From positions 288,001 to 352,000 of the forward strand of contig OZ223267.1 in assembly GCA_965140585.1 (NCBI GenBank): a stretch of 64,000 nucleotides of DNA. The letters run 5' to 3'. Every line of letters starts with the position of its first letter. Positions within the stretch are counted from its first letter, which is position 1. This DNA comes from Spirochaetia bacterium. GTDB taxonomy: Bacteria; Spirochaetota; Spirochaetia; UBA9216. Below the pieces are notes generated by a model. It saw only the letters and a program-made list of their open reading frames with translations. It did no database searches and was not told where the DNA came from. Of the stretch, positions 18,671-62,623 are shown piece by piece. Position numbers and translations under genes: made by a program.

Positions 18671-19459
18671 ATGGATGCAAAACTTCTAAAGAACAAGAGC
18701 GAGGAAGAACTCTGGACTCTTTACAAGAAAAAAAGAGATCCCATTATCAGGGAACTCTTTGTAAAGCAGTATGCCCCCCTTGTGAAGTATGTAGCCGGAA
18801 AGGTTGCGGTAGGGATGCCGCATAATATTGAATTTGATGATCTGGTTCAGTATGGTGTGTTCGGCCTTTTTGATGCAATAGACAAATTCGACCCTGCAAA
18901 ACATGTTAAATTCAAAACATATGCTGTTACCAGGATCAGGGGCGCTATATTTGATGAACTCCGATCGATTGACTGGGTTCCCAGATCTGTTCGCCAGAAA
19001 TCAAGAGAAGTCGAGGATGCCGTACATCGCCTTGAATCGTCACTTGGCAGAGCGGTTTCTGATAGTGAAATAGCCAATGAAATGGGCATGGACCTGCAGG
19101 AGTACCAGAAGACAATACTTAAAATCAGCGGTACCTCCATTATGTCGTTAAATGATGTCTGGTATACAGGCGAAGATAACGATAAGGTGTCTATCGTCGA
19201 CAGCATTGAATCACCGCAGGGCCTTAATCCGGATATTATCGTAGAAAAAGATGAAATTAAACGTGTAATAATCGAAGCAATAAACGAACTTCCTGAAAAA
19301 GAGAAAAAAGTTCTTGTTCTTTACTATTATGAAGACTTAACTTTAAAAGAGATAGGAAAGGTTCTGGAGGTAACTGAATCCAGAGTATCGCAGCTTCACA
19401 CTAAGGCGATTATGCGGCTTAGAGCCAAGCTTACTAACCTTAAGAAAGGAATTATGTAG
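18671..19459 (+). CDS. fliA: RNA polymerase sigma28 factor FliA/WhiG
   Basis: [48 protein letters not shown]. Confidence 0.97.
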
Positions 19460-22281: not shown

Positions 22282-24102
22282 ATGAAAGATAACCGACTAC
22301 TAAAGACATTTATAAGCGATACAGGCATGCATATAAATAAGATCAATGATCTTCTAATTGCGATGGAGAATAATACTTCTGCACCTGAAGCTGTAAATGA
22401 ACTTTTCAGATATGTTCACTCAATTAAATCAGAGGCGGCTTATCTTGGTATAGACGATATTTCAGAGACAGCACATGATCTTGAAAATATCCTCGAAACA
22501 GTAAGATCTTCATCAACCCGCAGAATAGAAGAGAAGGAGCTTATCATGTTCTGCTATAAGGCTGTTGACCGTATCTCAGAGCAGCTGAAACGGGTTAAAG
22601 TTTCAGCTGTCGGTACCTTAAATAATGTTAGCAGTGAGGAAGAAAAAAAATACACTGATTTCGAAAAACTCCTGCTCAGGGAAGCCGAAGATCGCGATGA
22701 GAAGCTGTATGAAGTATGTTTCGGAATTTCTGAAGAAGAGTCAATGAAGTATGCAAGGGCATATCTGGCACTTAGTAATCTTGAAATGAAATATAATGTA
22801 ATTAAAACTATTCCTGAGCTCGATGAAAATGAGGAGAACTTTCCTGAAGCCATCATTGTAGTACTTTCATCCGGATCTGATGAACAGGAGATTATCAGGG
22901 ATTTAAATATCGATCAAATCAGCAATTTGAGGATTAAAAGACTGATATTTTCTGATGAATACGATGCCAGATTAGTATCCGAAGCTGCTGCTGATTTAGG
23001 TAAAAGTAAAGATAATATTTATAATGTTGATGCTTCAGAGATTGATGAAATAAACGATTATCTGGTTGAGATTCGACGGAGGATATCGGGGCTTTCCGGC
23101 TCATTTGGAGACTCCTCTGAACTGGACAGTATGGAAAATGAACTTAAGGGGTTGGAATCAATTTCAAGCGGTATTGCTTCGCTTATGGATCGGCTAAAAA
23201 TGGTTCAGTTTGCTGATCATTTTGCCTCCTATCGTAGATTGGTTCGGGATCTGGCAGATAAATCGGGCAAAAAAATTGAGCTTTTCATTGAAGGTGATCT
23301 TAAAATTTCAAGGGATTTCGCTGAATACCTTAAAGAGCCAATAATTCAGATTCTTAAAAATGCAATTGTACATGGAATTGAAGCTCCGGAAATGCGAAGC
23401 CGTAAAGGTAAGTCTCCGACAGGCAAAATTACTCTTGCGGTCAGAAAAAACTCAGAGTCTACAGTTATAACTGTCAGTGATGATGGTGCTGGAATTGATG
23501 AAAACATCTACAGCAGTAATGGAATAGGCCGCAGTGAGCATGCTGATGTCCTGAATATTATTTCTCAGCCCGGGTTCAGTTCTCTTGCCGAGAGTAATAA
23601 ACTGGGCGGACGCGGGGTTGGGCTTGACCTTGTTGTCCATGAACTTGAAAAAAAGAAGGGAAGGCTGGAACTTGTTAACAATCCCGGCCAGGGTTGTATA
23701 TTCCGGATGGTTTTCAGTGACTTCCAAAATGAGACTAAATACCTTGTTTTGAAATATCGTGATAATAACTACGCTGTTGAAATGAAACCCGGGATTGAAC
23801 CCGAAACATATAATCCTGCTGCAGTCACTGAAAACGGGATAAATTTTGAGATAGACGGTATCGGGCTGTACTCTCCTGAGGGACGTGTTTCAAATAACGA
23901 CAGTGAGGCTTCAGGCTGTAATACAATGCTTTATATAAAGAATCCAAGCGGTGAGGGCTATGTAGTTTTTGAAGAAGCCCTATTTGAAGTAAAATACGAT
24001 AAAAAAAGGATTGTGAAAACTGAACCTGCAGGAAAGAACTCCAGCTGGGTTAAGGTGGACAGTCAGCCTGCCGACTTCCTTCTGCTTGAAATGAAATTTT
24101 AG
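22282..24102 (+). CDS. Atypical CheA-like histidine kinase (HPt, P2, HATPase, degenerate C-terminus)
   Basis: LFRYVHSIKS HPt; MKYARAYL P2-like; ILKNAIVHGIE, DDGAGID, QPGFSS, GGRGVGLD. Confidence 0.8.
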   Translation: MKDNRLLKTFISDTGMHINKINDLLIAMENNTSAPEAVNELFRYVHSIKSEAAYLGIDDISETAHDLENILETVRSSSTRRIEEKELIMFCYKAVDRISEQLKRVKVSAVGTLNNVSSEEEKKYTDFEKLLLREAEDRDEKLYEVCFGISEEESMKYARAYLALSNLEMKYNVIKTIPELDENEENFPEAIIVVLSSGSDEQEIIRDLNIDQISNLRIKRLIFSDEYDARLVSEAAADLGKSKDNIYNVDASEIDEINDYLVEIRRRISGLSGSFGDSSELDSMENELKGLESISSGIASLMDRLKMVQFADHFASYRRLVRDLADKSGKKIELFIEGDLKISRDFAEYLKEPIIQILKNAIVHGIEAPEMRSRKGKSPTGKITLAVRKNSESTVITVSDDGAGIDENIYSSNGIGRSEHADVLNIISQPGFSSLAESNKLGGRGVGLDLVVHELEKKKGRLELVNNPGQGCIFRMVFSDFQNETKYLVLKYRDNNYAVEMKPGIEPETYNPAAVTENGINFEIDGIGLYSPEGRVSNNDSEASGCNTMLYIKNPSGEGYVVFEEALFEVKYDKKRIVKTEPAGKNSSWVKVDSQPADFLLLEMKF

Positions 24103-24114
24103 TTCAAAAAATTC

Positions 24115-24141
24115 TAAAGTTCAAAGCCGGTTTACCGATAT
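24115..24141 (+). promoter_or_regulatory. Sigma28-type promoter with no credible downstream protein gene
   Basis: TAAA(G)-N15-ACCGATAT versus consensus TAAA-N15-GCCGATAA/T. Confidence 0.7.
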
Positions 24142-24148
24142 TATTTTT

Positions 24149-24212
24149 AGGGTTGAACACCTTATTTGATAATTAACGGTATGCACATAACGTCCAGGCA
24201 TACCGTTTTTTT
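24149..24212 (+). ncRNA. Candidate sigma28-dependent small RNA (~65 nt)
   Basis: Bounded by the sigma28 promoter and an intrinsic terminator; complementary to flaB-flaG intergenic mRNA; ends predicted only. Confidence 0.55.
24175..24212 (+). terminator. Intrinsic terminator
   Basis: AACGGTATGC / 13-nt loop / GCATACCGTT; T run at 24206-24212. Confidence 0.8.
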
Positions 24213-24233
24213 ATGCCTTAAGTCTCCCTTAAT

Positions 24234-25244
24234 CTATACAGGGAGAATACAATTCTCAGGTTTCTTAAAGAAATCTTTATTTTCTTCAAGAATTTCATTA
24301 ATGGTTTCTTTCAGCCCGACTACAGCAGATGCTCCGAGCGGGAGTAACGCTCCTCCTCTGCAAAGATTCAAGATTTGGTCTTCTACGATGGATTTCATTT
24401 CATCTTTGGGAATTGCTCCCAGTTTTAGTGAAGCCATATCCATACCACCGGTTAACACAAGCCGATCTCCATATTTCTTTATAATACTCTCAATATCATT
24501 GATGGTCTGTACAGATGTCCAGTGTTCTATTCCTGCTTCTATCATTGAAGGGATCAGATTTTCGATTTTACCGCAGCTGTGAAACCTTAGAAAAATATTT
24601 TTCTCCTTACCAAACTCGGTCAGCCTTTTAATATGGGGTGCAAGAAGACTGTTCCAGACATCAGTACTGAAAAACTGATTTTCCTGATGGCCCCAGTCGT
24701 CGTGCAGCTCTATCTGATCAACAGGGTAGTATTCAAGGATTTTTTCCATAACTCTAATCTTGTGATCAACTACAGCGCTGAAAAAGTCAGAGGAGGCTTC
24801 AGGTTCGATCAGCAGCGCCATACATGCCTCCGACATCCCCATAAGTGCATGCATTCTTTCAAACGGACCGTTTAAAAGTGTAATATTGGCAAGTTTTTCA
24901 GGTATAAAGATATCTTTGTCTCTTTCTGCAGCAGCAGCCCAGTCTATTGCTTCCAAATCAGGAAATTTTACCTGTTCCTTCCATTTCTTTATATCAGTCA
25001 AAATTGGCGGATATTCATGGCTTACTGTGGCTGCACGTACGTGAGGCTGAAAAACCCAGTGTACCCCGAACCAGTCAAAACCGGTTCCTCCCAGGGCCTG
25101 TTCGATCGAACCGTCGCCGGGAGCCCTTTCTGCAATTTCGGGCGGAATATAGTTGACTTCATCCTGCCTTGCATTAGGAATCCACTCTGGGACCTGATGT
25201 GTCAACACTCTAATATAGTTTTCCTTGGGGGTTAAAGTTGACAT
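24234..25244 (-). CDS. Uroporphyrinogen decarboxylase-family protein (MtaA/CmuA methyltransferase-like)
   Basis: DWFGVHW, GPFERMHALMG, HDDWG, FHSCG, GGMD motifs. Confidence 0.8.
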   Translation of the reverse strand: MSTLTPKENYIRVLTHQVPEWIPNARQDEVNYIPPEIAERAPGDGSIEQALGGTGFDWFGVHWVFQPHVRAATVSHEYPPILTDIKKWKEQVKFPDLEAIDWAAAAERDKDIFIPEKLANITLLNGPFERMHALMGMSEACMALLIEPEASSDFFSAVVDHKIRVMEKILEYYPVDQIELHDDWGHQENQFFSTDVWNSLLAPHIKRLTEFGKEKNIFLRFHSCGKIENLIPSMIEAGIEHWTSVQTINDIESIIKKYGDRLVLTGGMDMASLKLGAIPKDEMKSIVEDQILNLCRGGALLPLGASAVVGLKETINEILEENKDFFKKPENCILPV

Positions 25245-52792: not shown

Positions 52793-53253
52793 TGATGTTA
52801 ACAGTAAATACAAAGGCGTATGGAACAATTGAAGTTGATGAGCGCCAGAAGATAACTTTTTCAAATGGACTATTCGGTTTTGAAAACCTTCATGAATTTG
52901 TACTGCTCGATGCTCAGCAGCAGCCTTTTTACTGGTTGCAGTCTCTTGAAGTGAAGGAAACAGCCTTTGTAATGATAAATCCGGGAGTTTTCAGAACAGA
53001 TTACTATCCGGACATAATTTCAGCTGATATGGTTGATCTTCAGCTTGATAATCTTAAAGATCCTTCTGCTCTCATTTTTGCAATTGTAACTATCCCTGAG
53101 AACCAGCAGAAGATGTCTGCCAATCTGCAGGGGCCTGTTATCATCAATAAAGAAAAGAAAATAGGTAAACAGAGTATAACAATTGACTCCTGTTGGAAAA
53201 CGAAGCATTACATTCTTGAGGAACTTGCAGGATCAAGAGGTAAGGCATGCTGA
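52792..53253 (+). CDS. fliW: Flagellar assembly factor FliW (CsrA antagonist)
   Basis: [24 protein letters not shown]. Confidence 0.96.
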
Positions 53254-53480
53254 TACTTACCAGAAAAATAAATGAAAGCATCACCATTGGCGACAATATA
53301 GAAATTTCAGTAGTAGAGATCAAGGGCGATCAGGTTAAAATCGGAATTAATGCCCCTAAAGAAATAAAAGTATTTAGAAAAGAAGTTTATATGGCTATCC
53401 AGAAAGAAAATGAAGAAGCTGCGGCAAGCAGTGCTCTGGTACTTCCTGAAATTACAGATCTAATCCGTGATAAGGAATAA
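53247..53480 (+). CDS. csrA: Translational regulator CsrA
   Basis: [18 protein letters not shown]...[20 protein letters not shown], with C-terminal extension. Confidence 0.97.
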
Positions 53481-57995: not shown

Positions 57996-59993
57996 TCAGT
58001 TGTTATTATTGTTCAGATTATTCAGTGCATTAGAACTCTGCTGCATTGAATTGATATTACCTTCCATGATTGCATACTTATTCTTAAGCTCGGCTTCCTT
58101 GTCTTCCAGTTTTAGTTCATATGAGGCAATATCCCGTTCTGTTCTGGTTATTCTTGAATCAAGACTTGATATTCTGTATGCAACAATGCCGCCGGTTCCT
58201 GTATAAGGTTTAGTATATTCCTGGGTCTTATATGCTGCTCCGTTATCTACAACAAGATCTCCATCACTGTCTATGCCGAAGAGCTCTTTAACAGCTACAA
58301 GATTTTCCGTTAAAGCGCTGTCCAGATCATTTTCATTAATTTCTATATAGCCCCTGAGTTTTGAGTTATTAATTCCGCCGCCGAAACCTGATGAATTGGT
58401 TGATATACCTATCTGCGAAAGCAGTTTAAGGTTATCTCCGGCAGAAGTAGTATACGGCTCCATCATTATATACTGAAGTCGTGATTTCATCTGATTAAGA
58501 GTTGAATCTCCCTGAAACAGACCAAGCCTCTCTCTTGCTGTCTTTTTTTCCTCATCGGAAAAATAATCAATTTCTGATATCAGCCCGCCGTCATTTGAAA
58601 CAAGAATTCCAAGTTCAGCCTGTAATCTGTTATAATTCCCGACAAATTCAATAATTGTGTCTTTAATCAGCTCTCGGTCAGGCTTAATATCAAGTTTTAC
58701 AGCCTTATCACTCTCTCCGTTAATATTCAGAGTGACACCTGGAATAAGATCGTCTATTGTATTGGATGTACGCCTTACTTCTATACCGTCTATTTTTATT
58801 TTTGCATCTGATGCTGTTGATACAGGCCGGGCTGGTTCCCATTCTCCACGTGCATCCGGATCATAAATTTTTATATCAGAAATTGATATTTCCCTGAATG
58901 TGTTTTTATTGAAAAATTTGATTGCATCAGCAGCTCCTGCTGCATCTCTCAGGTTTATTGTAATCGTCTGTTCTTCAGATGTTTTCCTGAATCCAGGCAA
59001 TATAGTTTCTTTTCCGTCAGCAACGAGGCTGAATACCTCAAAATCATCAATTACTTCTGGCGGTTCAGGTTCCTGATACTGAGGCATTTCAACTGTCGAA
59101 TTACTGTTGCTGATAGTTATGCCTTTAAATGAAATACTGCCGGGAGTAAGCTCATCCGGACCTGTGGGCGGGGTAGGTGGGGTCCATTCGCCCTGTTCCA
59201 TTTCATTTACAGTGAAAGTAATTTCAAGTACCATTTTGCCGTTATCTTTTACTGAAGGATTTACAGGTATGCTGCCCTGAGCTCCCGGTTGAAGAACGAG
59301 ATTATTTTTTTCATCAAGTTTGAATAATGTTCCCGCTTCTTCCGGTGTAAGGGCGATGTTGCGCATTGAACTGTCGGATCTTTTTAAAACACCGGCAGAT
59401 ACAGCGAAATCCAGTGCTGTGCCCTCATTGAATATAAGCCTGTTTTCAAGGCCTTCTTTTGTAGACTCTATTAAAATAACGCTTGTATCTGGAGTATCTT
59501 TTATGACTTGCGCATGAAGTAAATCTCTGCCTCTGCTGTTAATTCTGTCAGCCAGTCTTGATAGAGAACCACCTCTGAAATTAAATGAAATCTCCTCTTC
59601 GCCTATTGTAAAGGAATAAGTCCCATCAGGGGCGTCAAAATCTTTATCCATTGAGTCAGATAAAAACCTGTCTGAAGCAGCCATATTAATAATTTTAATG
59701 GTTTTCTGTTCTTCTATTGCATCTCTGCCTACAGTTGCTGTAAGTACATCCTCATCGGAAGATTCTGCGATGCGTTCACTAAACGGGTTTTCAAAACCGT
59801 AGAGTTTCTTTGCCGCGTCTTCAACTTTTGAAATATTTCGGGAGATATCCTGCCAAACTGTCTTTTCATTTTCATACTTATCAAGCTCATCCTGCTTTCT
59901 TTCGAGGGGAATTCTTTCGAGCTCCATGAGTTTGGAGACAATACTGTCGGTATTATAACTGCTTGTAACACCCGGTATAGTTACATCGGACAT
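57996..59993 (-). CDS. fliD: Flagellar filament cap FliD
   Basis: IVSKLMELERIP N-terminus, DAKIKIDG...SNTIDDLIPGVTL, FVGNYN, C-terminal coiled coil. Confidence 0.95.
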   Translation of the reverse strand: MSDVTIPGVTSSYNTDSIVSKLMELERIPLERKQDELDKYENEKTVWQDISRNISKVEDAAKKLYGFENPFSERIAESSDEDVLTATVGRDAIEEQKTIKIINMAASDRFLSDSMDKDFDAPDGTYSFTIGEEEISFNFRGGSLSRLADRINSRGRDLLHAQVIKDTPDTSVILIESTKEGLENRLIFNEGTALDFAVSAGVLKRSDSSMRNIALTPEEAGTLFKLDEKNNLVLQPGAQGSIPVNPSVKDNGKMVLEITFTVNEMEQGEWTPPTPPTGPDELTPGSISFKGITISNSNSTVEMPQYQEPEPPEVIDDFEVFSLVADGKETILPGFRKTSEEQTITINLRDAAGAADAIKFFNKNTFREISISDIKIYDPDARGEWEPARPVSTASDAKIKIDGIEVRRTSNTIDDLIPGVTLNINGESDKAVKLDIKPDRELIKDTIIEFVGNYNRLQAELGILVSNDGGLISEIDYFSDEEKKTARERLGLFQGDSTLNQMKSRLQYIMMEPYTTSAGDNLKLLSQIGISTNSSGFGGGINNSKLRGYIEINENDLDSALTENLVAVKELFGIDSDGDLVVDNGAAYKTQEYTKPYTGTGGIVAYRISSLDSRITRTERDIASYELKLEDKEAELKNKYAIMEGNINSMQQSSNALNNLNNNNN

Positions 59994-60026: not shown

Positions 60027-60443
60027 TTAGATAGTCTGGTCGATTATCAGCCCCATAGCTTCTTTCATTTTGGCATACAGCCTTTTAAGCTCTTCAGGAG
60101 GGATCTCCTTGATTACTTTATCGGTTTCTGCGTCAACGACCTTTACGATAACCTGGTCTAATTCCTTGTCTATACTGAATTTGAGTCGTCTATTAAATAC
60201 TTCGGTGATATCTATAATGTCGCGCAGATATTTCTCTGCATCTATTTTTTCGCGTTGTTTTTCTGCATTCTGTACTTCCGCTTCAAGCTGTTTTACAGCT
60301 GTCTGTCGTGCTTCTTCCTGCTGCTTTACGGCCTGTTCCGTCCGTATTTTCACTTTGTTGCTTTCAATTTTCTGAGAGGAAGTGTCTACTCTGCGGTTCA
60401 TAGTAAAAGCACCTGAATTCAGGGCCTGTATGTCCATTTCCAT
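60027..60443 (-). CDS. flaG: FlaG family protein
   Basis: LKFSID....VIVKVVD.ETDKVIKEIPPEE...GLIID. Confidence 0.93.
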   Translation of the reverse strand: MEMDIQALNSGAFTMNRRVDTSSQKIESNKVKIRTEQAVKQQEEARQTAVKQLEAEVQNAEKQREKIDAEKYLRDIIDITEVFNRRLKFSIDKELDQVIVKVVDAETDKVIKEIPPEELKRLYAKMKEAMGLIIDQTI

Positions 60444-60446
60444 AAC

Positions 60447-60606
60447 ACCACTCCTTGGTTGATAATCGAAATGCCTGCATCTCGATTATTTGAATTACCG
60501 GTCGGTAATTCACAGCCACCTATCAAAGCTGCTGGAAAGAATGGAAGGGGGCGCGAGCCCCTCCCCGTAAAATCAGTAAAAAGATAACGTCCAGAAATCT
60601 TTTTAC
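60447..60606 (-). other. Array of hairpins filling the flaB-flaG intergenic mRNA
   Basis: Stems at 60576-60606, 60543-60565, 60491-60512, 60462-60489 and 60447-60459. Confidence 0.75.
60536..60566 (-). terminator. Probable leaky intrinsic terminator after flaB
   Basis: GC-rich GGGAGGGGC/GCCCCCTTCC stem followed by a weak ATTCTTT tail. Confidence 0.5.
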
Positions 60607-60622
60607 AAGAAACAGAATCAAT

Positions 60623-61474
60623 CTATAGTAACTGAAGCACTGACTGGGGTGAAGTGTTTGCCTGAGCAAGCACTGCCGTGCTGGACTGTGTAAGGATCTG
60701 GTTTTTAACATAATCAACCATCTCACTGGCCATATCCACATCACGTATTGATGATTCTGCTGCCTGAAGGTTTTCTGCTGCAATTGCAACACCCTTCGAT
60801 GCAGTTTCGAACCTGTTCTGGTATGCACCAAGATCGGCTCTCTGTTTTGAAACCTGTTTGAGTGCGCTGTCGACAAGTCCGATTGCCATGTTGGCATCTT
60901 CCGGAGTCTGGATTGTGATAGTTCCCTCTCCACCCTGGATATTTTCAATACCAAGAGCAGCAGCTGTCATAGTTCCAATATAGATTTTTTCATTCTGGTC
61001 CATATTGGCACCAACCTGGAACTGCATAATCTGACCTGTAGCAGAATCAGTTGCAAATGCGCCTGTAAGCATATTCATGCCGTTGAACTGCGCGTGTGAA
61101 GCAATTCTGTTAATCTCATCAACAAGCTGTGAAACCTCTACCTGAATCTGCATTCTGTCTTCTTCAGTATAGATTCCGTTAGCCGACTGAACAGAAAGTT
61201 CTCTCAGTCTGTGAAGAATGTCCTGTGTATTAGCAAGATATCCTTCGGTTGCCTGAATGAATGAAACACCGTTTTCAATGTTTCTGTTTGCCTGAGTTAA
61301 CCCGCGAATCTGACTTCTGAGCTTTTCTGAAACAGCAAGCCCTGAAGCGTCATCGCCGCCTTTGTTGATTCGCATACCGGAACTGAGTTTTTCAAGATTA
61401 CCAGTCATCTCAACAGCCTTATTATTAAGCTGTCTACTGGCATAACTTGCACTCAAGTTGTGATTAATTATCAT
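60623..61474 (-). CDS. flaB: Flagellar filament core flagellin FlaB
   Basis: [37 protein letters not shown]; 283 aa. Confidence 0.98.
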
Positions 61475-61496
61475 ATAACCCTCCTTGATAGGTTAA

Positions 61497-61515
61497 GAAG
61501 GCATCCCTTGCCTTC
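61497..61515 (-). promoter_or_regulatory. CsrA-binding hairpin in the flaB leader
   Basis: GAAGGCA-AGGGA-TGCCTTC, GGA in the loop, upstream of SD AAGGAGG. Confidence 0.75.
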
Positions 61516-61522
61516 ATTTTTT

Positions 61523-61638
61523 GCATGGCAGTGCAGTAAACAAGAAGTTACTCGCGCTTCTCCCGTTCAGTATACCTGCACAACAAGGAGAAATTCCGAC
61601 CGTTTGTATAACCGGAAAATCTCCTTCATCCACCATGC
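61523..61638 (-). ncRNA. Candidate multibranch structured RNA between the two flaB genes
   Basis: Outer stem GCATGGTGG/CTGCCATGC enclosing AAGGAGA..TTCCG/CGGAA..TCTCCTT and GTGCAG/CTGCAC arms. Confidence 0.5.
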
Positions 61639-61688
61639 TAGAGGGTTTTTTTCAAAGAACGTAAACTCTACGTAAAAATTATAGCCCT

Positions 61689-62549
61689 TTATCCAAGCAA
61701 TTGCAATACAGATTGTGTTTTCATGTTAGCCTGAGCCAGCATAGCAGTTCCAGCCTGAACAAGAATCTGATTCTTGGTGTAGCTGACCATCTGTTCAGCC
61801 ATATCAGCATCACGAATTCTTGATTCTGCAGCCTGGAGGTTCTCAGCTCCGATGTCGAGGCCTGATACAGCGTATTCAAGTCTGTTCTGGTAAGCACCAA
61901 GGTCTGCTCTCTGCTTGTTAACAGTTTTAAGAGCCTTGTCGATTACACCAATTGACATGTTAGCGCTTTCAGGAGTCTCAAGAGACATGATTTTACCGCT
62001 TCCGATTTCTTTAACACCAAGTGATGTTGAAGTCATTGTACCAATGAATACTCTTTCTCTCTGATCAATGTTTGCGCCGATATGGAACCACATTGAAGCA
62101 GTAACAGTGTTTTCACCGGTTTCCTGTGCAAAACGTCCAGTCAGCATATTCATACCGTTGAACTGTGCATGTGAAGCGATTCTGTCAATTTCATCAACCA
62201 GCTGTGAAACTTCTACCTGAATCTGCATTCTGTCTTCTTCAGTATAAATACCGTTTGCAGACTGTACTGAAAGTTCTCTGACTCTCTGAAGTACATTCTG
62301 AGTAGACTGCAGATATCCTTCAGTAGCCTGAATAAAAGATATACCGTTTGCAGCATTGTCAGAAGCCTGATTGAGTCCTCTAATCTGTGAGCGCATCTTT
62401 TCTGATACAGCAAGACCTGAAGCATCATCGCCGGCTCTGTTGATTCTTAGACCGGAAGAAAGTTTCTCCATGTCCTTTGTTGTAGCAAGGTTTGACTGTC
62501 CAAGAGACCTATTTGCAAACATTGCGCTGAGGTTGTGATTAATAACCAT
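61689..62549 (-). CDS. flaB: Flagellar filament core flagellin FlaB
   Basis: MVINHN start at 62549 after GGAGG; [22 protein letters not shown]; MWFHIGAN; 286 aa. Confidence 0.98.
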
Positions 62550-62572
62550 AAAATCCTCCATGAAATTATATA

Positions 62573-62586
62573 GGGCATCCTTGCCC
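62573..62586 (-). promoter_or_regulatory. CsrA-binding hairpin in the flaB leader
   Basis: GGGCA-AGGA-TGCCC. Confidence 0.78.
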
Positions 62587-62623
62587 AACTCTGCATACTG
62601 CAGAGCTATTAACCAAAAATAAC

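Follow-up and report, generated by a model that had tools for sequence, protein, structure and literature searches.

The stretch analysed here, called the window and used for all coordinates unless stated otherwise, comprises 64,000 nucleotides (nt) of contig OZ223267.1 from a Spirochaetia bacterium (G000 among our genomes, 4.85 Mb). Between two convergent genes of this window, one encoding a cheA-like and the other a URO-D-like protein, a terminator hairpin begins 73 nt past the cheA stop. The flagellin gene flaB, 36 kb away, carries a further hairpin in its 3′ untranslated region (3′UTR), just ahead of flaG and fliD (Table 1). A sequence-only reading had noticed that the 11-mer ATAACGTCCAG stands on the plus strand both at 24187–24197, in the terminator loop, and at 60584–60594, and this exact identity holds; 9 of the 11 complementary bases were likewise correctly placed in the loop of the first hairpin past the flaB stop, with 2 in its stem. 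We consider it quite probable that 24149–24214 (+) encodes a trans-acting small RNA (sRNA) of ~65 nt, which belongs to the late sigma28/FliA regulon, is shared by many families of its class and engages the flaB 3′UTR hairpin by loop-loop kissing. The two loops change together from genome to genome, which points to an as yet undescribed RNA-RNA control step in flagellum synthesis.

The elements of the predicted sRNA gene and of its target region are collected in Table 1. A sigma28-like promoter motif (sigma28 consensus: TAAA-N15-GCCGATAA) precedes the hairpin, and a fliA match is found in the same window at 18758–19435 (TIGR02479, 295 bits). Folded from 24149, the predicted sRNA has a minimum free energy of −16.9 kcal/mol (z = −3.0). 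The match between the two loops is not beyond chance in this genome on its own, so that its significance rests on conservation and covariation in other genomes.

Table 1. Features of the predicted sRNA locus and of the flaB-flaG-fliD region (window positions; aa, amino acids; bp, base pairs).
Feature	Position	Strand	Remarks
cheA-like gene	22282–24102	+	606 aa; Pfam Hpt, P2, HATPase_c; upstream of sRNA
sigma28-like promoter	24115–24140	+	−35 TAAAG 24115–24119, N15, −10 CCGATA 24135–24140 (regular expression)
predicted sRNA, ~65 nt	24149–24214	+	putative start from promoter, putative end from T-run
small 5′ hairpin of predicted sRNA	24149–24163	+	pairs 1–5 with 11–15; sequence differs between genera
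terminator hairpin	24175–24207	+	10-bp GC-containing stem, arms 24175–24184 / 24198–24207
terminator loop	24185–24197	+	13 nt, ACATAACGTCCAG / ACAUAACGUCCAG
conserved seed AACGUCCAG	24189–24197	+	3′ half of loop; reaches 24187 in this genus
U-tract (T7) of intrinsic terminator	24208–24214	+	sequence
URO-D-like gene	24234–25244	−	convergent with cheA-like gene
fliD	57996–59993	−	Pfam FliD_N, FliD_C; after flaG
flaG	60027–60443	−	Pfam FlaG; start codon 60443–60441; next gene after hairpins 1 and 2
proposed second site, flaG Shine-Dalgarno region	60450–60466	−	not supported as part of the system
GC-rich hairpin 2 (GGGGAGGGGCUCGCGCCCCCUUCC), likely flaB terminator	60543–60565	−	weak U-tract here (AUUCUUUCC)
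target bases CUGGACGUU	60586–60594	−	complementary to sRNA seed
flaB 3′UTR hairpin 1	60606–60576	−	arms 60606–60597 / 60585–60576; loop UUCUGGACGUU 60596–60586
flaB (flagellin core protein)	60623–61474	−	Pfam Flagellin_N, Flagellin_C; 3′UTR carries target; 36 kb from sRNA

A BLAST search with 136 bases recovered the sRNA hairpin at 82–100% identity in other families of the class. The homologues share a common build, in which the promoter motif and a variable 5′ part are followed by AACGGUAUGC, a loop ending in ACGUCCAG, GCAUACCGUU and a U-run; a T-run is present after the hairpin in all inspected homologues but one (G040). With a strict sRNA pattern we found 92 of 401 class genomes, each with a single copy (two in G236), and 0 matches to the reversed control. 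The motif ACGTCCAG is unchanged in 91 of these 92 matches, and its rare variants have their counterparts in the target. The hairpin was also detected with a covariance model (R1), at E ≤ 0.01 in 78 of 151 genomes. Scanning a collection of species-level genomes for an exact 21-mer gave at least 120 contigs; the 80 titles among the matches listed name spirochaete taxa, except 2 that read 'bacterium' only, and they include a strain record of Candidatus Marispirochaeta associata JC231. Outside the class, the covariance model gave nothing convincing in the 151 genomes of the phylum sample, where only G000, one class member and one hit scoring on both strands passed 1e-4. Rfam 15 had 0 matches at gathering score over the whole window, and its E-value mode at both loci returned only chance-level matches of at most 21 bits. 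The stem was assessed in an alignment (A3) of 65 sense hits at E ≤ 2e-6, from which the weaker L115 and L075 and the variants of family f35 were left out. Here 98.8% of the cells are paired and 7 of the 10 pairs are changed on both sides, a result reached by 0 of 500 shuffles. The f35 sRNA has a wholly different stem (GUCCGUAAG / ACUUACGGGC) and the same loop, showing that the loop, and not the stem, is the conserved determinant. The covariance model misses this version, and hence the true distribution of the sRNA is wider than the counts given. The f35 form (L132, L134–L137; genomes G044, G071, G197, G241 and G312) is also longer, and in addition to its different terminator stem it carries a pair of 5′ hairpins in which a GUGUUCAACAG stretch is conserved.

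Conservation extends to the target hairpin. The pattern AGAU-N(1-4)-CUGGACGU-N(1-3)-AUCU, with NN-CUGGACGU-N as the loop form, occurs in 101 of the 401 genomes, once in each, against 4 control matches. Its stem is paired in 96.5% of the cells, and 7 of 10 pairs are changed on both sides (23 sequences); 0 of 500 shuffles reach the paired percentage and 1 of 500 the count of doubly changed pairs. This alignment holds 23 of 27 loci, as L028 and L037 failed the hairpin filter and L032 and L117 differ in loop length. The hairpin starts 10–45 nt after the end of the FlaB match in all 24 related loci, and the order flaB, hairpin, flaG, fliD is kept in 23 of them; in the remaining one fliD comes directly next. 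Hairpin 2 is kept and trailed by a T-run in most related loci. The flaG gene often starts less than ~30 nt from that T-run, so that flaG-fliD is probably reached by read-through. Judged by the paired and doubly changed positions in the alignments, our comparisons show both hairpins to be conserved RNA structures.

The apex of hairpin 2 keeps a CGCG-containing motif (GCUCGCGCC, GACGCGCC, AUCGCGCC, GUCGCGCC) across families while the rest of the stem varies, which is more conservation than a plain terminator needs.

The most telling evidence comes from the pairing between the two loops. The ninth pair is formed by the base 5′ of ACGUCCAG and the base 3′ of CUGGACGU. Tabulated by hand for the 48 genomes with both strict matches, it is A:U in 13, G:C in 29, U.U in 5 and G.A in 1, and not once A.C or G.U. 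When 27 further genomes were added (11 with variant stems, G031 and G022, five of f35, and nine with flagellin loci fetched), 68 of the 75 ninth pairs were found to be Watson-Crick, namely A:U in 26, G:C in 40 and U:A in 2. Changes in the core were sought independently of the target pattern, in every flagellin locus of 10 genomes, and double compensatory changes were detected at three core positions in five genomes. The core pair C:G has become U:A in G019 (sRNA GAUGUCCAG, target CUGGACAUC) and G080 (AAUGUCCAG, CUGGACAUU), both of family f10, and independently in G126 of f17 (GAUGUCCAGU, ACUGGACAUC), whose congeners keep ACGU. An A:U pair is replaced by U:A in G050 (AUCGUCCAG, CUGGACGAU) and by G:C in G062 (GACGUCCGG, CCGGACGUC). 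The corresponding sequences are GACGUCCAG and CUGGACGUC in G055, which belongs to the family of G019 and G080, UACGUCCAG and CUGGACGUA in G023, and AACGUCCAG and CUGGACGUU in G069. Three target changes were predicted in advance; those for f10 and G062 were found, that for G012 was not. Additionally, all 24 cognate pairs tested have 8–11 contiguous Watson-Crick pairs, and the mean run of 9.46 compares with 7.81 for non-cognate combinations, a difference that 0 of 20000 permutations reach. Compensatory covariation of the loops, which the sequence-only reading had named as a check of its proposal, is present at the ninth pair and, in five genomes, in the core. The intermolecular loop pairs covary, and these data strongly support the view that this first site is a selected RNA-RNA contact. 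Comparison of the loops also shows that, read as RNA, they are complementary in all lineages examined apart from one genus, which is without both motifs. This exception lies in family f5: in G014 the motif is gone from the sRNA as well as from the target, and the sRNA of G051 places this genome with it. A new complementarity in G014 was considered; its best duplex, at −13.6 kcal/mol, is equalled by 12 of 300 shuffles, and we treat the case as a loss of both.

Does the hairpin belong to a separate RNA at all? It could simply terminate the upstream gene, cheA here and maf in most families, and pair as an mRNA 3′ end. The hairpin stands close behind the cheA stop, its immediate upstream neighbour in most families is maf in the same orientation, and a relaxed promoter motif is missing from 16 of 64 loci. 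The sequence-only reading had instead proposed a sigma28-type sRNA unit with its own terminator, and the homologous loci appear to bear it out: of 64 loci, 48 have a sigma28-like −35/−10 motif in the stretch from the upstream stop to the hairpin, and the reversed control gives 1 of 64. The motif falls in the narrow range of 20–51 nt before the terminator stem in 47 of the 48; in one it lies at 93 nt. Moreover, the unit has been turned around without losing its promoter. The sRNA gene is always found between maf (MptE-like/Maf_flag10) and the cheA-like gene, and most families have it downstream of maf. The family of this genome has the unit turned the other way with respect to maf and cheA, so that it comes after cheA; its own promoter and the RNA-sense complementarity are kept. 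Even a 3′ end of an mRNA would still require the loop-loop pairing to explain the covariation. We regard a mere terminator as unlikely.

As for the neighbourhood, the URO-D-like gene was found between the sRNA and maf only in the two genomes of this genus, and maf abuts the sRNA in sister genera. The cheA-like protein is without a CheW-like or dimerisation domain match (Pfam, E ≤ 0.001).

Alternatively, the flaB 3′UTR hairpin might be kept mainly as a protein site, for example for CsrA at the GGA of its loop, and the sRNA would then be a competing anti-site. Known CsrA sites on flagellin mRNAs lie in 5′ leaders. In the window, the flaB 5′ leader (61480–61530, −) has a small hairpin with a GGA loop (GGCAAGGGAUGCC) just upstream of an AAGGAGG Shine-Dalgarno sequence, a layout that presumably resembles the two-site CsrA operators on flagellin leaders elsewhere. 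A protein site would account for the GGA(C) in every target loop, which is invariant even where the flanks change; csrA itself is encoded in the window (53247–53402), and in other bacteria flagellin mRNAs are an established target of CsrA, according to excerpts of PMC4894983 and PMC9481697. However, an invariant GGAC/GUCC core is equally expected of a G:C-rich nucleation helix, and flaB already possesses a CsrA-like hairpin and Shine-Dalgarno site in its 5′ leader. We find it improbable that the hairpin is mainly such a site. A sponge RNA of the CsrB/RsmZ type was considered for the sRNA as well and rejected, as the sense strand of 24149–24214 is without GGA, which is found on the target strand.

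The shared word could also be read at the level of DNA, with both loci as sites of one protein that binds double-stranded CTGGACGTN and with RNA pairing irrelevant. The two loci do share a duplex word of 8–9 bp, and a change in the specificity of the protein could yield co-change. We judge this very unlikely, for the word sits at both loci in the loop of a hairpin with a covarying stem, and its orientation is constant with respect to transcription and variable on the DNA (opposite strands in G000, same strand in G039). The changes affect four positions and are at least five independent events, each of which would need a matching change of the protein. A chance match of two unrelated terminator-like hairpins fits the unremarkable single-genome statistics and is already contradicted by the conservation and covariation of both loops across dozens of families; we hold it to be extremely improbable. 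A cis-antisense RNA was discarded too: the sRNA and its target are 36 kb apart here and ~32–103 kb apart on shared contigs elsewhere.

Several observations weigh against a FliA-dependent sRNA that kisses the flaB 3′UTR hairpin. The transcript, its ends and its FliA dependence are read from sequence motifs; the only sequencing run listed for this organism is of the DNA type. Genome-wide, the relaxed sigma28 expression gave 220 matches versus 237 for its control and is thus not enriched, which leaves conservation of the motif at the sRNA locus as the sole promoter evidence. The 11-mer is at chance level, with 3 copies in the 4.85-Mb genome and 5 of its reversed control. In a loop-only, accessibility-aware energy ranking the flaB site comes 10th of 556 at −11.3 kcal/mol, behind the self-antisense site of the sRNA at rank 1 and a site in a 599-aa open reading frame (ORF) of contig 7 at rank 2; the sequence-only reading had expected the flaB-flaG UTR to top a target scan, and it fell short of this in our ranking, a crude substitute for IntaRNA. 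Among the ninth pairs, U.U in five and G.A in two of the 75 genomes are mismatches, and G012 breaks a core pair (sRNA GACGUCCAG, target CUGGACGCA), leaving 7–8 pairs. The genome G005, 97% complete, has the target and no model match for the sRNA. Because the genomes are related and hence not independent, the permutation p-value exaggerates the evidence, and the strict target pattern fixes CTGGACGT, whereby changed targets are visible only in the 10 genomes whose loci were fetched. Finally, a helix of 8–9 bp in an 11-nt loop may be strained, and the evidence is silent on the direction of regulation.

Thermodynamics in one genome is without the power to single out the flaB target. Indeed, in a crude energy ranking of the whole sRNA the flaB site is not in the top 500, and the weakly folded 5′ region dominates the list. 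The 8-mer CTGGACGT has 20 genomic copies, 18 of them inside ORFs of at least 272 aa, and its only two non-coding copies are in the flaB 3′UTR and on the antisense of the sRNA itself; 8 of 60 permuted 8-mers are as rare, and we claim no depletion. The third copy of the 11-mer (G000 contig 7, 133881–133893, L003) lies in the 599-aa ORF of the rank 2 site and is probably due to chance. A second CUGGACGUU, at 62133–62140 (−) in the coding region of the flagellin gene upstream of flaB, is complementary to 9 seed bases; among the inspected loci its position is shared only with the genome of the same genus (L025), and the copy is probably incidental.

The sequence-only reading had placed a second contact at the flaG Shine-Dalgarno sequence. 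The underlying similarity is real: ACACCTTATTTGATAAT (24157–24173) and 60450–60466 are identical at 14 of 17 positions, and the stretch between the two flaB-flaG sites folds into hairpins as stated (z = −4.9). The pairing itself did not hold up. The mean energy of sRNA and flaG leader was −10.9 kcal/mol for cognate and −11.7 kcal/mol for non-cognate combinations (permutation p = 0.84; 12 genomes, effectively 11, as the G010 region was wrong). Within this genome the site takes rank 1429 of 8821, and the 5′ part of the sRNA, its would-be partner, differs in sequence between genera. A role of the second site in the conserved mechanism is not supported. In the same intergenic region, two extra perfect hairpins, GAAUUACCGACCGGUAAUUC and AUAAUCGAGAUGCAGGCAUUUCGAUUAU, stand between the flaB terminator and flaG (60462–60512, −). 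They lengthen the flaB-flaG region in this genus and its sister genus; in most other families flaG is reached no more than ~30 nt after the terminator.

Further upstream, between the preceding flagellin gene (61689–62588) and flaB, 61600–61665 (−) contains a conserved non-coding GUUCUUUGAAAAA..CCCUC, followed by a hairpin AAGGAGAnnUUCCGG…CCGGnAAnnUCUCCUU. Behind the corresponding flagellin gene of G012, G055, G019, G062, G126, G023 and G069 stands a similar sequence. The element may serve as a terminator, as a leader or as some other regulatory RNA.

In the mechanism that we favour for the first site, FliA-RNA polymerase would transcribe the sRNA, and the 3′ half of its terminator loop, N-ACGUCCAG, would be the functional determinant. 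Together with the loop of flaB hairpin 1 (CUGGACGU-N) it would form a kissing helix of 8–11 bp, sited a few nt upstream of the flaB terminator and of flaG-fliD. Such pairing would alter the fate of the flaB 3′ end, that is, its stability, its processing or the read-through into flaG-fliD. We prefer a version in which kissing would generate or hide a nuclease site, for instance for RNase III on the loop-loop helix, and in which this effect would set the stability of the abundant flaB message as well as the ratio of terminated flaB mRNA to flaB-flaG-fliD read-through. It is equally possible that the 3′UTR of this message titrates the sRNA. Given the invariant GGAC in the target loop and the presence of csrA in the window, one may speculate about an interplay with CsrA. 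A bolder combination of these ideas, which we think rather unlikely, would have the flaB 3′UTR (hairpin 1 and terminator) released as an abundant RNA of its own, with which the sigma28 sRNA would engage in mutual titration. The helix would then hide the GGA loop from CsrA, and one 9-bp contact would couple the abundance of flagellin mRNA, the CsrA-FliW checkpoint and the flaG-fliD read-through that bears on filament length and cap, in a circuit kept throughout the class. The natural compensatory variants AUGUCCAG/CUGGACAU, ACGUCCGG/CCGGACGU and UCGUCCAG/CUGGACGA offer ready designs for mutant and rescue experiments on the kissing contact.

Post-transcriptional control of flagellin in spirochetes is known mainly through CsrA and FliW in Borrelia, and to our knowledge the class at issue lacks a classical sRNA network of the Hfq type. 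If the favoured reading is true, it would add a widely conserved RNA-RNA contact that looks independent of a chaperone, with a terminator loop as the seed and a 3′UTR hairpin by a terminator as the target, two features that as far as we know are both uncommon in bacterial sRNA biology. The pair would sit at the very junction that balances flagellin output against FlaG, for filament length control, and against FliD, the cap. Kissing interactions as such are familiar from antisense systems, among them OxyS-fhlA, RNAIII of S. aureus with rot and coa, CopA-CopT and RNAI-RNAII; these have a G:C-rich core, typically do without a chaperone and are often followed by RNase III cleavage. They are known to act on 5′ leaders, ribosome-binding sites or replication primers. 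The present pair differs in that the target is a 3′UTR hairpin beside a terminator, and in that the regulator uses its own terminator loop.

In the full-text literature, with supplements such as the motif lists of PMC5737381 outside this scope, we found neither a spirochete sigma28 sRNA nor a flaB or flagellin 3′UTR element. Excerpts of PMC9481697 speak of CsrA and, for T. denticola flaB2, of a sigma28 promoter; an sRNA is not mentioned in these excerpts. CsrA-FliW, as portrayed there and in parts of PMC4894983, is also a post-transcriptional control of flagellin that uses a GGA hairpin loop; it is, however, protein-based and acts on the 5′ leader, and its link to the spirochete 3′UTR hairpin is speculative. 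Among the nearest analogues are the E. coli sRNAs UhpU, MotR, FliX and FlgO (PMC10578931, in part), which likewise belong to the late flagellar regulon and act on flagellin expression. FliX derives from the 3′UTR of the flagellin gene fliC, so that flagellin 3′UTRs are known to carry regulatory RNA. According to the same excerpts these RNAs are derived from UTRs, enriched with Hfq and pair in coding sequences or 5′ regions, whereas the spirochete candidate is a free-standing gene that would bring a terminator loop to a 3′UTR loop, and Rfam reveals no relation in sequence or structure. In C. jejuni, FlmR (CJnc170, FliA-dependent) and FlmE (CJnc230) form a pair of opposing flagellar RNAs with FliA-dependent tuning of the filament (PMC11187230, in part). 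CJnc230 represses flgM and a flagella-interaction regulator at translation; these parts describe no flagellin 3′UTR target or kissing loop, and there is no homology. Finally, SdsR, RseX and ArrS act on a stem-loop in the fepA 5′UTR (PMC11979758, in part), where likewise a terminator loop is the determinant and a distant stem-loop the target. Their action is described in these parts as 'likely without base-pairing' and needs Hfq and RNase E, whereas in the spirochete pair the covariation of the two loops supports pairing.

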